From Escherichia coli (lineage in GTDB: Bacteria > Pseudomonadota > Gammaproteobacteria > Enterobacterales > Enterobacteriaceae), in assembly GCF_001677475.2 (NCBI RefSeq), contig NZ_CP015229.1: DNA of 64,000 nt, one strand, 5' to 3'. Under the pieces are notes generated by a model that worked only from the letters and a program-made list of their open reading frames with translations, was not told the origin of the DNA and searched no databases. This document shows positions 15,873-43,120 of the stretch, one piece after another (position 1 is the stretch's first letter; each line of letters begins with the position of its first letter). The translations under genes were made by a program, and so were the position numbers.

Positions 15873-18236
<2,364 letters not shown>

Positions 18237-18362
18237 GGCCTGCTCCTCACCTGATTAATTTTTTCTTTCTGTTTTGCTTTCGCTAAGCAACTTTTAGCTC
18301 ACTCATTATTTACCATTTGATAACAAATGTTTGGTCTTTCGTGCCATGTAAAAAAACCGCCC

Positions 18363-18366
18363 CGAA
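18363..18366. repeat. Target-site duplication CGAA (left copy)
   Basis: Identical CGAA directly abuts both IS ends (second copy 19808..19811). Confidence 0.7.
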
Positions 18367-18384
18367 TGAACTGCACCCCAAAAG

Positions 18385-18939
18385 TTGGACACTCAACGAA
18401 GTAAGGTGCAGTTTTTTATGAGTAAATATTCTCTCAGCTTTAAGCTTGAGGTTGTGCAGCACTATCTTTCCGGCATGGAAGGGCAGAAAGCGACTGCAAA
18501 GCGTTTTGGTATCGATCACAGTGCCGTTCGTAAGTGGACTGCTGCCTGGAAGCTTCATGGCGAAGCCGGACTTACCACCCGGCATTTCGCCTATTCTCCC
18601 GTCTTTAAAGAGTCCGTTATCCTGCATATGCGTGAGCACCGGTTGTCTGTTCGCGAAGTCTGTGCAAAATTCACTATTCCGGCTTTCTCCACGGTCCTTC
18701 TGTGGGAACGCCTGTATGATGAAGGGGGATTAGAAGCCCTCACTGACAGCCGACGCGGGAGAAAAACGATGCCAGAACGCCCTGAAAATAACCCGGCACC
18801 TTCTTTACAGGCTCCTCTTAACCATGATGAACGAGAGGAACTTGAACAACTGCGTGTTGAAGTGGCTTATCTAAAAAAGTTGCAGGCCTTGCTCAGGGAA
18901 AAAAGCACGTCAAAACGCGGGATAAAACGCAGATCGTGA
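18385..18939 (+). CDS. IS3-family transposase OrfA (HTH DNA-binding, leucine-zipper C-terminus)
   Basis: ORF track 184 aa; resembles IS150-group OrfA architecture; contains in-frame A_AAA_AAG slippery heptamer. Confidence 0.85.
   Translation: MDTQRSKVQFFMSKYSLSFKLEVVQHYLSGMEGQKATAKRFGIDHSAVRKWTAAWKLHGEAGLTTRHFAYSPVFKESVILHMREHRLSVREVCAKFTIPAFSTVLLWERLYDEGGLEALTDSRRGRKTMPERPENNPAPSLQAPLNHDEREELEQLRVEVAYLKKLQALLREKSTSKRGIKRRS
18873..18879 (+). promoter_or_regulatory. Programmed -1 ribosomal frameshift slippery heptamer A_AAA_AAG
   Basis: In orfA frame codons CTA AAA AAG; -1 frame is open from here into orfB (checked codon by codon to 18936). Confidence 0.7.
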
Positions 18940-19775
18940 ATGAGTTAAGGCCGGACTTCCCTCTTGCGCGCTTGTTAAAAGCGGCAGGGCTGGCGAGAAG
19001 TACGTTCTACTGGCAACTGGCGAGCGGTAAAAAACCAGACAAATATGCCGATGATAAGCGGCAGATTTTAACGCTGTTCCATAAACATAAAGGACGGTAT
19101 GGATACAGGCGAATCACGCTGGCTATCCGCCGGGAAGGAAGCTTACTGAACCATAAAAAGGTTCAGAGGTTAATGAAGGCGTTAGATTTAACCTGCTGTA
19201 TCAGAAGGAAGAAATACAACTCTTACAGAGGCCGGTATGGGAAAGTGGCGGGTAATGTGCTGAACCGGCAGTTCAGTGCGGATAAGCCCAACCAGAAGTG
19301 GGTAACAGATGTCACGGAATTTAAAATCAGCGGAGAAAAACTGTATCTGTCCCCCGTTCTGGATCTGTATAACGGAGAAATAGTTGCGTATCAGATGGCG
19401 TCCCGTCCTCTTCTGTCGATGGTGGATGACATGCTGTTGAAGGCTGTATCTGTACTGGGTAAAGACGAATACCCGCTGCTCCACTCAGATCAGGGCTGGC
19501 AATATCAGATGGCGCATTATCAGAACCGGCTTAAGGAGGCTGGTCTGAAACAGAGCATGTCAAGGAAGGGGAACTGTCATGACAATGCGGTGATGGAAAG
19601 CTTCTTCGGCACGCTGAAATCTGAGTGTTTTTACCTGATGGAACACAAGAATATCAGCGAGTTGCGCATGGCTATCGATAATTACATCCACTATTACAAC
19701 CATGAAAGAATAAAACAGAAACTGAAAGGCCTGAGTCCGGTAGAGTACCGAACCCAGGCCCTGATAGCCGCTTAA
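18936..19775 (+). CDS. IS3-family transposase OrfB (DDE catalytic domain), probably expressed as OrfAB fusion
   Basis: ORF track 279 aa; motifs HSDQGWQYQ and NCHDNAVMESFFGTLKSE typical of IS3-family integrase core. Confidence 0.85.
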   Translation: MNELRPDFPLARLLKAAGLARSTFYWQLASGKKPDKYADDKRQILTLFHKHKGRYGYRRITLAIRREGSLLNHKKVQRLMKALDLTCCIRRKKYNSYRGRYGKVAGNVLNRQFSADKPNQKWVTDVTEFKISGEKLYLSPVLDLYNGEIVAYQMASRPLLSMVDDMLLKAVSVLGKDEYPLLHSDQGWQYQMAHYQNRLKEAGLKQSMSRKGNCHDNAVMESFFGTLKSECFYLMEHKNISELRMAIDNYIHYYNHERIKQKLKGLSPVEYRTQALIAA

Positions 19776-19807
19776 TATAAACCGTCCAACATTATGGGGT
19801 CAGTTCA

Positions 19808-19811
19808 CGAA
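19808..19811. repeat. Target-site duplication CGAA (right copy)
   Basis: See left copy. Confidence 0.7.
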
Positions 19812-19823
19812 GGGCGGCTCTGT

Positions 19824-39268: not shown

Positions 39269-42061
<2,793 letters not shown>

Positions 42062-43120
42062 ATGGTATTCAGAATAGCTAGCTCCCCTTATACCCATAAC
42101 CAGCGCCAGACATCGCGCATTATGCTGTTGGTGTTGCTCGCAGCCGTGCCAGGAATCGCAGCGCAACTGTGGTTTTTTGGTTGGGGTACTCTCGTTCAGA
42201 TCCTGTTGGCGTCGGTCAGTGCTCTGTTAGCCGAAGCTCTCGTACTCAAACTACGCAAGCAGTCGGTAGCCGCAACGTTGAAAGATAACTCAGCATTGCT
42301 GACAGGCTTATTGCTGGCGGTAAGTATTCCCCCCCTCGCGCCATGGTGGATGGTCGTACTGGGTACGGTGTTTGCGGTGATCATCGCTAAACAGTTGTAT
42401 GGCGGTCTGGGGCAAAACCCGTTTAATCCGGCAATGATTGGTTATGTGGTCTTACTGATCTCCTTCCCGGTGCAGATGACCAGCTGGTTACCGCCACATG
42501 AAATTGCGGTCAACATCCCTGGTTTTATCGACGCCATACAGGTTATTTTCAGCGGACATACCACCAGTGGTGGTGATATGAACACGCTACGCTTAGGTAT
42601 TGATGGCATTAGTCAGGCGACACCGCTGGATACATTTAAAACCTCTGTCCGTGCCGGTCATTCGGTTGAACAGATTATGCAATATCCGATCTACAGCGGT
42701 ATGCTGGCGGGCGTTGGTTGGCAATGGGTAAATCTCGCCTGGCTGGCTGGCGGCGTATGGTTGCTGTGGCAGAAAGCGATTCGCTGGCATATTCCCCTCA
42801 GCTTCTTAGTAACGCTGGCGTTATGCGCAACGTTGGGCTGGTTGTTCTCACCAGAAACACTGGCAGCACCGCAAATTCATCTGCTGTCTGGAGCGACCAT
42901 GCTCGGGGCATTCTTTATTTTGACTGACCCGGTTACCGCTTCTACGACCAATCGTGGTCGTCTTATTTTCGGCGCGCTGGCGGGCTTATTAGTCTGGTTG
43001 ATCCGCAGTTTCGGCGGCTATCCTGACGGCGTGGCTTTTGCCGTCCTGCTGGCGAACATCACGGTTCCTCTGATCGATTACTACACGCGTCCGCGCGTCT
43101 ACGGCCATCGCAAAGGGTAA
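42062..43120 (+). CDS. rsxD: Rsx complex subunit D
   Basis: ORF track 352 aa. Confidence 0.95.

Follow-up and report, generated by a model that had tools for sequence, protein, structure and literature searches.

An ISEcB1 copy in the loop of the predicted fumA terminator of Escherichia coli suggests terminator-hairpin targeting with fixed polarity

The region between the fumarase genes fumC and fumA was analysed in a stretch of 64,000 nucleotides of Escherichia coli NZ_CP015229.1 (the window), to which all coordinates refer. The spacer between the two genes contains an insertion sequence (IS) of 1441 bp, identified as ISEcB1, and the IS lies in the loop of the hairpin that is predicted to terminate fumA transcription. 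Comparison with other copies and with relatives of the element suggests that such hairpins, and their direction, are what it selects. The features of the locus, including the two copies of the target-site duplication (TSD), are as follows.

16833-18236, minus strand: fumC, class II fumarate hydratase
18350-18356, minus strand: A7 run, the U7 tract of the predicted fumA intrinsic terminator (from the sequence, IS-free genomes and the fold)
18357-18362, minus strand: CCGCCC (GGGCGG in the transcript), distal 3' arm of the predicted terminator hairpin of fumA
18363-18366: CGAA, left TSD copy and original tetraloop (single copy in the empty site)
18367-19807, plus strand: ISEcB1, complete, 1441 bp, TGAACTG...CAGTTCA
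19808-19811: CGAA, right TSD copy (from the sequence)
19812-19817, minus strand: GGGCGG (CCGCCC in the transcript), proximal 5' arm of the same hairpin
19826-19824, minus strand: fumA stop codon
19824-21470, minus strand: fumA, class I fumarate hydratase, terminator split

Across the junctions the sequence runs gtgccatgt-A7-CCGCCC-CGAA-TGAACTGCACCCC...GGGGTCAGTTCA-CGAA-GGGCGG-ctctgtTTA. The proximal arm begins 6 nt past the fumA stop codon, and the 3' arm now lies 1.4 kb away from its partner. The class I fumarase adjoining fumC is labelled 'fumB' by PGAP in the window and at loci L002, L003 and L139; it is called fumA here by position.

The initial annotation of this DNA had described an element flanked by a 4-bp CGAA duplication and, outside it, by complementary CCGCCC and GGGCGG arms preceded by an A7 run, and had proposed that the arms formed the fumA terminator before the insertion. 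Both CGAA copies were read at the positions listed above, and deletion of the IS together with one of them restores AAAAAAA-CCGCCC-CGAA-GGGCGG. The spacer that remains is exactly 142 bp, against an estimate of about 142 bp, and is equal in length to that of CFT073, in which the exact empty-site string AAAAAAACCGCCCCGAAGGGCGG is present. The comparison with IS-free E. coli that had been proposed as a check gave a single unbroken match to the reconstructed 600-bp empty site in 5393 of the 5426 complete E. coli genomes, and the possibility that the hairpin is an artefact of the duplication is ruled out by these IS-free sites. The allele of the window, with a CGAA duplication at fumA, was found in 0 of the 5426. 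On the fumA strand the RNA of the empty site reads UAA-ACAGAG-CCGCCC-UUCG-GGGCGG-UUUUUUU, in which the tetraloop UUCG caps a stem of six GC pairs and U7 follows, and its hairpin fold scores z = -5.3 against shuffles; the terminator scan reported the empty-site hairpin on the plus strand only, and the fumA strand was assessed by this separate fold. The structure is thus predicted to be a classic intrinsic (Rho-independent) terminator, and the duplicated CGAA corresponds to its tetraloop, as the earlier placement of the insertion had it.

The identity of the element, previously left open, was established by comparison with annotated genome copies, under the rule that two copies of one IS share 95% or more of their nucleotides from end to end. 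The window copy is 99.9% identical over 1441 bp to copies that carry the PGAP annotation 'IS3-like element ISEcB1 family transposase' in REL606, BL21, E. coli C and other strains, differs from them at 1-2 positions, and it is accordingly identified as an intact copy of the known ISEcB1, of the IS3 family and IS150 group. ISEcB1 was found in 116 of the 5426 complete genomes. It was first recorded from E. coli B REL606/BL21 and is given in the literature as an element of E. coli B, with its targets undiscussed (PMC3032704, PMC7881107). The REL606 copy is termed 'incomplete' in PMC7881107, yet it is full length and its frameshifted transposase is intact. The parts of the window copy are listed below.

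18367-18391, plus strand: left terminal inverted repeat, TGAACTGCACCCCAAAAGTTGGACA
18368-18414, plus strand: hairpin of the left end, GAACUGCACC...GGUGCAGUUU, with U's and then the orfA AUG after it (from the fold)
18418-18939, plus strand: orfA, 173 aa, two HTH_28 motifs
18873-18879, plus strand: slippery heptamer A AAA AAG in the orfA zero frame, predicted site of a -1 programmed frameshift
18418-19775, plus strand: OrfAB transposase, predicted -1 frameshift product of 452 aa, with HTH_28 x2, HTH_21, rve and rve_2 (from translation and Pfam)
19782-19807, plus strand: right terminal inverted repeat, ...CCGTCCAACATTATGGGGTCAGTTCA

The anatomy agrees with the IS3-family assignment that had been made from the letters alone: the terminal inverted repeats are imperfect and run 5'-TG...CA-3', the TSD is 4 bp, and OrfAB matches the NCBIfam model NF033516 (IS3 family transposase) at 410 bits against a cut-off of 160. 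Pfam matches on OrfAB include rve (2.3e-24) and rve_2 (1.2e-22). The orfB reading frame lies in the -1 frame and ends at 19775, and PGAP annotates a 'programmed frameshift' in identical ISEcB1 copies. Because its open reading frames (ORFs) are open, the window copy looks functional. The left-end hairpin (-18.8 kcal/mol, z = -3.9) takes in the terminal bases of the IS and masks the AAGG Shine-Dalgarno sequence; the same terminator-like design is present in most relatives, and it may block transposase expression from transcripts that enter from outside.

Eighteen E. coli copies of ISEcB1 were inspected for their insertion sites: 14 lie between yfbM and nuoN, two downstream of sseA and two at fumA. 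The fumA copies belong to 19SZHZ869Rt and 23CRST009, the only two complete genomes with ISEcB1 between fumA and fumC. Both carry the IS in the same fumA loop and in the same orientation as the window, with the TSD CCGA, one base leftward, and their flanks bear single-nucleotide polymorphisms absent from the window. Because the TSDs (CGAA and CCGA) and the flanking polymorphisms differ, the two insertions are taken to be independent events at one 4-nt loop. The E. coli nuoN terminator site, with an A8 run, is AAAAAAAA CCGCCGA G[CATG] TCGGCGG, and the sseA terminator site is AAAAAA CCGCCG[AATT]TGGCGG TTTTTT. A 91.5% ISEcB1 variant, which came from a plasmid search, occupies the nuoN terminator of Klebsiella aerogenes (AAAAAAA CCGCCG[AAAA]CTCGGCGG TTTTTT, TSD AAAA).

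When the reconstructed empty sites were folded, all five independent ISEcB1-type events fell in loops of 4-5 nt closed by stems of at least 6 bp. Under a looser criterion, which accepts stems of 5 bp or more and loops of up to 8 nt, 5.6% of random positions lie in a hairpin loop, so that p is about 6e-7 for five in five. The left IS end adjoins the A-run side in every event. All four distinct hairpins open with A5-8 CCGCC(C/G), a shared sequence that points to a component of recognition beyond the hairpin itself; the only match to the pattern A{5,}CCGCC in all 64 kb of the window is the site that the IS occupies. A metagenome scan with a 35-nt ISEcB1-specific end pattern returned two loci, both at the known nuoN site, and no new one.

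Several copies and fragments show further variation. In E. coli 510016 the yfbM-nuoN copy (L125) has TGATTTT in place of GAGCATG in the 7 nt beside the left end and has no TSD; the remaining flank is identical, and a micro-rearrangement or an assembly error may be responsible. A second full-length copy, at the terminator of sseA (L124, L126), is present in the BL21 lineage and in HKUOPY1 and absent from REL606; its left TSD copy in BL21-Gold is AATG rather than AATT. An orphan right-end remnant of an ISEcB1-like element, ~300 bp at 87% identity (L138), is present in ~450 records of K. pneumoniae virulence-type plasmids, and E. coli Z1322HEC0010 has a 40-nt right-end remnant beside a second ISKpn1-like right end (L147).

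The exact terminal 24 nt of the element, TGAACTGCACCCCAAAAGTTGGAC (18367-18390), were also scanned in a collection with one genome per species and were found in at least 120 stretches. Among the matches listed, the carriers include Neisseria, Burkholderia, Paraburkholderia, Proteus, Vreelandella, Moraxellaceae and Comamonadaceae, and also Streptococcus, Bacteroidales, Labilibaculum, Anaerolineae and Dehalococcoidia. These are evidently different ISs, because their interiors differ. Exact retention of a 24-nt IS end across several phyla (L004-L123, at least 43 genomes) is unusually strict conservation.

Statistics were compiled for 115 such ends from 43 genomes. A run of at least four A's is present at -28..-5 in 57% of the 115 ends, and in 77% of the 71 left-type ends (those with an internal hairpin, T-run and ATG), against a background of 12.8%, while T5 runs precede none of the ends (0%, background 4.6%). 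The gap between A-run and junction clusters at 8-15 nt, which corresponds to a single stem arm and some of the loop. At loci with both flanks, sites with only an A-run outnumber those with only a T-run by ~9:1, and most of the reconstructed sites fold into a strong hairpin with the TSD in the loop or at the loop-stem junction. Stems vary from site to site within one genome, as at 9 of 9 sites in a metagenome-assembled genome (MAG) of Moraxellaceae, where six different stems were seen. At the Neisseria sites the arm is the GGTCGTCTGAA of terminators formed by pairs of DNA uptake sequences (DUS).

Bacteroides sp. OM05-12 (L032-L051) has ~20 copies at contig ends with the identical 24-nt sequence at both ends, placed between ...AGTGAAGGCACTTTTTTT and TTTAGTTGAGAATTGAGAG... 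in either orientation, a repeated target with neither an A-run nor a GC hairpin. Miniature derivatives occur in a Bacteroidales MAG (L012, L013, L014), a Clostridia MAG (L108, L109) and Burkholderia sp. USMB20 (L105, L106). Some are 43-48 nt long and consist of just the two ends fused; others are 189-197 bp, resemble miniature inverted-repeat transposable elements (MITEs) and have a 3-bp TSD (CTT) in hairpin loops.

The explanation judged highly probable from these comparisons is that the fumA site was chosen by ISEcB1 itself, through targeting of terminator-hairpin loops with fixed polarity, a behaviour shared with its relatives. The DDE transposase OrfAB would arise through -1 frameshifting on the A AAA AAG heptamer and would act by an IS3-type pathway, presumably copy-out/paste-in through a circular intermediate as in other members of the family. 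In the intrinsic terminator of fumA, cuts staggered by 4 bp at the UUCG/CGAA tetraloop would give rise to the CGAA duplication. Integration by ISEcB1 and its relatives would be directed to short GC-rich palindromes beside an A-tract, in practice Rho-independent terminators, and within these to the loop or its junction with the stem. The left end, where the transposase gene starts, would lie on the A-run side, so that this gene faces the terminated gene. Because stem sequences differ between sites, what the transposase reads across the clade is proposed to be shape, namely dyad symmetry plus a flanking A/T tract; to this each IS would add a sequence preference, A5-8 CCGCC(C/G) in ISEcB1 and types of palindromic unit (PU) in IS1397 and ISKpn1. 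Read-through from the terminated gene would enter the IS antisense to the transposase gene, and transcripts from the other side would meet the left-end hairpin; together with the antisense polarity, this would insulate the transposase from outside transcription. For the wider proposition, that a cross-phylum clade of the IS150 group with an invariant 24-nt terminus, seen in Proteobacteria, Chloroflexi, Bacteroidota and Firmicutes, consists of dedicated, polarity-sensing terminator-loop inserters of which the PU specificity of IS1397 and ISKpn1 is a special case, the odds are regarded as even.

Several observations weigh against terminator-loop targeting. The sample is small, with four distinct hairpins known, and the nuoN site shared by 14 of the 18 E. 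coli copies was probably inherited. About one quarter of the left ends in the wider set lack an A-run, the copies at L068 and L099 and those of Bacteroides sp. OM05-12 deviate, a few sites have no hairpin, and the targets of IS1397 and ISKpn1 have no A-run. As to the orientation bias, genomic data cannot tell whether targeting or selection after insertion produced it; selection cannot explain precision to 1 bp within the loop.

An alternative considered unlikely is that the hairpin is recognised in single-stranded form on the lagging-strand template at replication forks, in the manner of group IIC introns, IS200/IS605 and integron attC. It would accommodate insertion at the loop or loop-stem junction regardless of stem sequence, and, given the negative GC skew of the window's plus strand, the lagging-strand template would be the strand with the fumA-sense hairpin and the T-run. 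Terminator stem-loops in DNA are indeed recognised by group IIC introns (PMC8643678). However, no association between IS orientation and local GC skew was seen at 37 related loci (21 negative, 16 positive), a weak test given how noisy a proxy local skew is over 5-14 kb, and orientation strongly tracks the side of the A-run. IS3-family transposases, such as those of IS911 and IS3, are also known to integrate a double-stranded circle into duplex targets.

Coupling of targeting to termination, in which the transpososome would be recruited by RNA polymerase that is pausing or terminating, by an R-loop or by some other host factor at terminators, is distinctly improbable. Polarity does track the U-run side, and hence the direction of the terminator, as such coupling would predict. 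IS1397 and ISKpn1 nevertheless use PUs, which are without U-runs and are 'not specific terminators', and their specificity has been ascribed to their transposases (PMC1525189); the A5-8 CCGCC common to all ISEcB1 sites likewise argues for recognition of DNA.

It is very improbable that the site was not selected by the element at all, the IS having inserted more or less at random, survived only at harmless spots such as the short stretch between the arms of a terminator behind a gene, and had its orientation filtered by harmful read-through into the transposase gene. Under random insertion and selection alone, survivors would be permitted anywhere in the 142-bp spacer, whereas the 4-nt loop at fumA was struck twice independently within 1 bp, the orthologous nuoN hairpin was struck in two genera, and loops account for 5/5 events against 5.6% of random positions. 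Intergenic 3' regions do tolerate insertions, most E. coli copies probably descend from a single nuoN insertion, and the genomic evidence taken alone is compatible with an orientation bias that arose by selection. Against this, the specificity of IS1397 and ISKpn1 has reportedly been demonstrated by experiment (PMC1525189). That the element is itself IS1397 or ISKpn1 and its target a PU is refuted by sequence identity and has next to no probability: each differs from it at just 1 of the 24 end nucleotides, but OrfA (36-40%), OrfB (53-58%) and a partial DNA similarity of 66-77% contrast with the 99.9% identity to ISEcB1, and the spacer has no PU core, the hairpin being a unique 16-nt stem-loop with a U-run.

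At the locus, the halves of the fumA terminator are split by 1.4 kb, which may alter transcription: fumA transcripts would run antisense into the IS, where no strong minus-strand terminator is predicted just inside the element, and any co-transcription of fumA and fumC would be interrupted. Park and Gunsalus are said to have reported in 1995 that fumC is co-transcribed from the fumA promoter. Upstream of the fumC start codon, 113 bp are intact up to the terminator remnant and the IS is reached at 130 bp, so that the promoter-proximal spacer of fumC appears untouched. The fumC gene is regulated by SoxRS and RpoS (PMC4393010). With 1.4 kb of antisense-oriented IS between the two genes, the insertion should change how fumA 3' ends form and also any expression of fumC that is driven from fumA.

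Elsewhere in the window, a 96-nt tandem repeat of ~6-7 copies (41399-42108) lies within an ORF at 39839-42061 on the plus strand and gives an RnfC/RsxC-like protein of 740 aa a 32-aa repeat in its C-terminal part. Scans of the 64-kb window found no tRNA genes and no Rfam families at gathering score. The cumulative GC skew falls steadily over 1-64000, which makes the minus strand the leading strand and fits a position near tus and the terminus.

ISEcB1 itself and the targeting of palindrome loops by IS1397 and ISKpn1 were already known. Fixed-polarity targeting of intrinsic terminators by ISEcB1, the IS150 group or the clade with the 24-nt end was not described in the literature searched, whose coverage of subscription journals and ISfinder notes was scant, and the polarity-specific preference for terminator loops appears undescribed. 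The comparisons suggest that a widespread IS3-family group recognises terminator hairpins and their direction. If this is true, the IS1397/ISKpn1 paradigm would reach beyond the PUs of enterobacteria and take in ordinary terminators of many phyla, and the tolerance of these elements would be explained. Such targeting would be a general 'safe-haven' strategy for a DDE transposon. Insertion hot spots such as fumA, nuoN and sseA would become predictable, the terminators could serve as natural 'landing pads' for engineering, and the elements would offer a tractable system for the reading of DNA shape by a DDE transposase.

Among known systems, IS1397 and ISKpn1 insert specifically in repetitive extragenic palindromic sequences (REPs), and their transposases appear responsible for the specificity (PMC1525189). 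IS1397 in strain JNEC-KY178 starts with TGAACTGCACCCCAAATGTTGGAC and lies in the PU loop GCCGGATGCGACGC[TGGC]GCGTCTTATCCAGC; ISKpn1 starts with TGGACTGCACCCCAAAAGTTGGAC and is located in a Klebsiella PU loop with the TSD TGC. Each differs from ISEcB1 at 1 of the terminal 24 nt. They share with it insertion in the loop of a palindrome, a TSD of 3-4 bp and a two-ORF plan with A6G. Their target is a repeated PU/REP, whereas that of ISEcB1 is a unique intrinsic terminator with an A/U-run: no PU core was found at up to three mismatches in the 142-bp fumC-fumA spacer, and the fumA target, a 16-nt hairpin plus U7, is not a palindromic unit of the kind that forms the REPs of bacterial interspersed mosaic elements (BIMEs). 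The IS1397-like behaviour suggested in the initial annotation is therefore borne out for palindrome-loop insertion and the near-identical ends, and not for the target, which is a terminator rather than a PU. The same annotation's likening of the element to IS1397 within the IS150 group stands for the group and the ends; in the proteins, IS1397 is not the nearest relative, as identity with ISEcB1 is 40% in OrfA and 58% in OrfB for ISKpn1, 36% and 53% for IS1397, and 33% and 57% for IS150.

IS150 belongs to the same group as ISEcB1 and has similar ends (TGTACTGCACCCATTTTGTTGGAC), a length of 1443 bp and the frameshift motif. Unlike ISEcB1 it shows no evident hairpin preference, the K-12 copy examined lying outside a hairpin loop. 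The B/C-type copies of ISEcB1 lie at the nuoN terminator, and the window copy at that of fumA.

Tn7 inserts at attTn7, in the glmS terminator region. The IS110/IS1111-family elements IS621, ISPpu9 and ISPpu10 lie in REPs, a 'safe-haven' targeting of extragenic palindromes or of the 3' ends of genes (PMC1525189). These elements and Tn7 differ from ISEcB1 in using other enzymes and sequence-specific RNA- or protein-guided recognition, without IS3-family chemistry. The nearest functional analogue is provided by group IIC introns, which recognise the DNA stem-loop of intrinsic terminators (PMC8643678) and, like ISEcB1, home to terminators with fixed polarity. They are retroelements that insert just past the terminator in single-stranded DNA and not in the loop, whereas ISEcB1 is a DDE transposon that inserts inside the loop.

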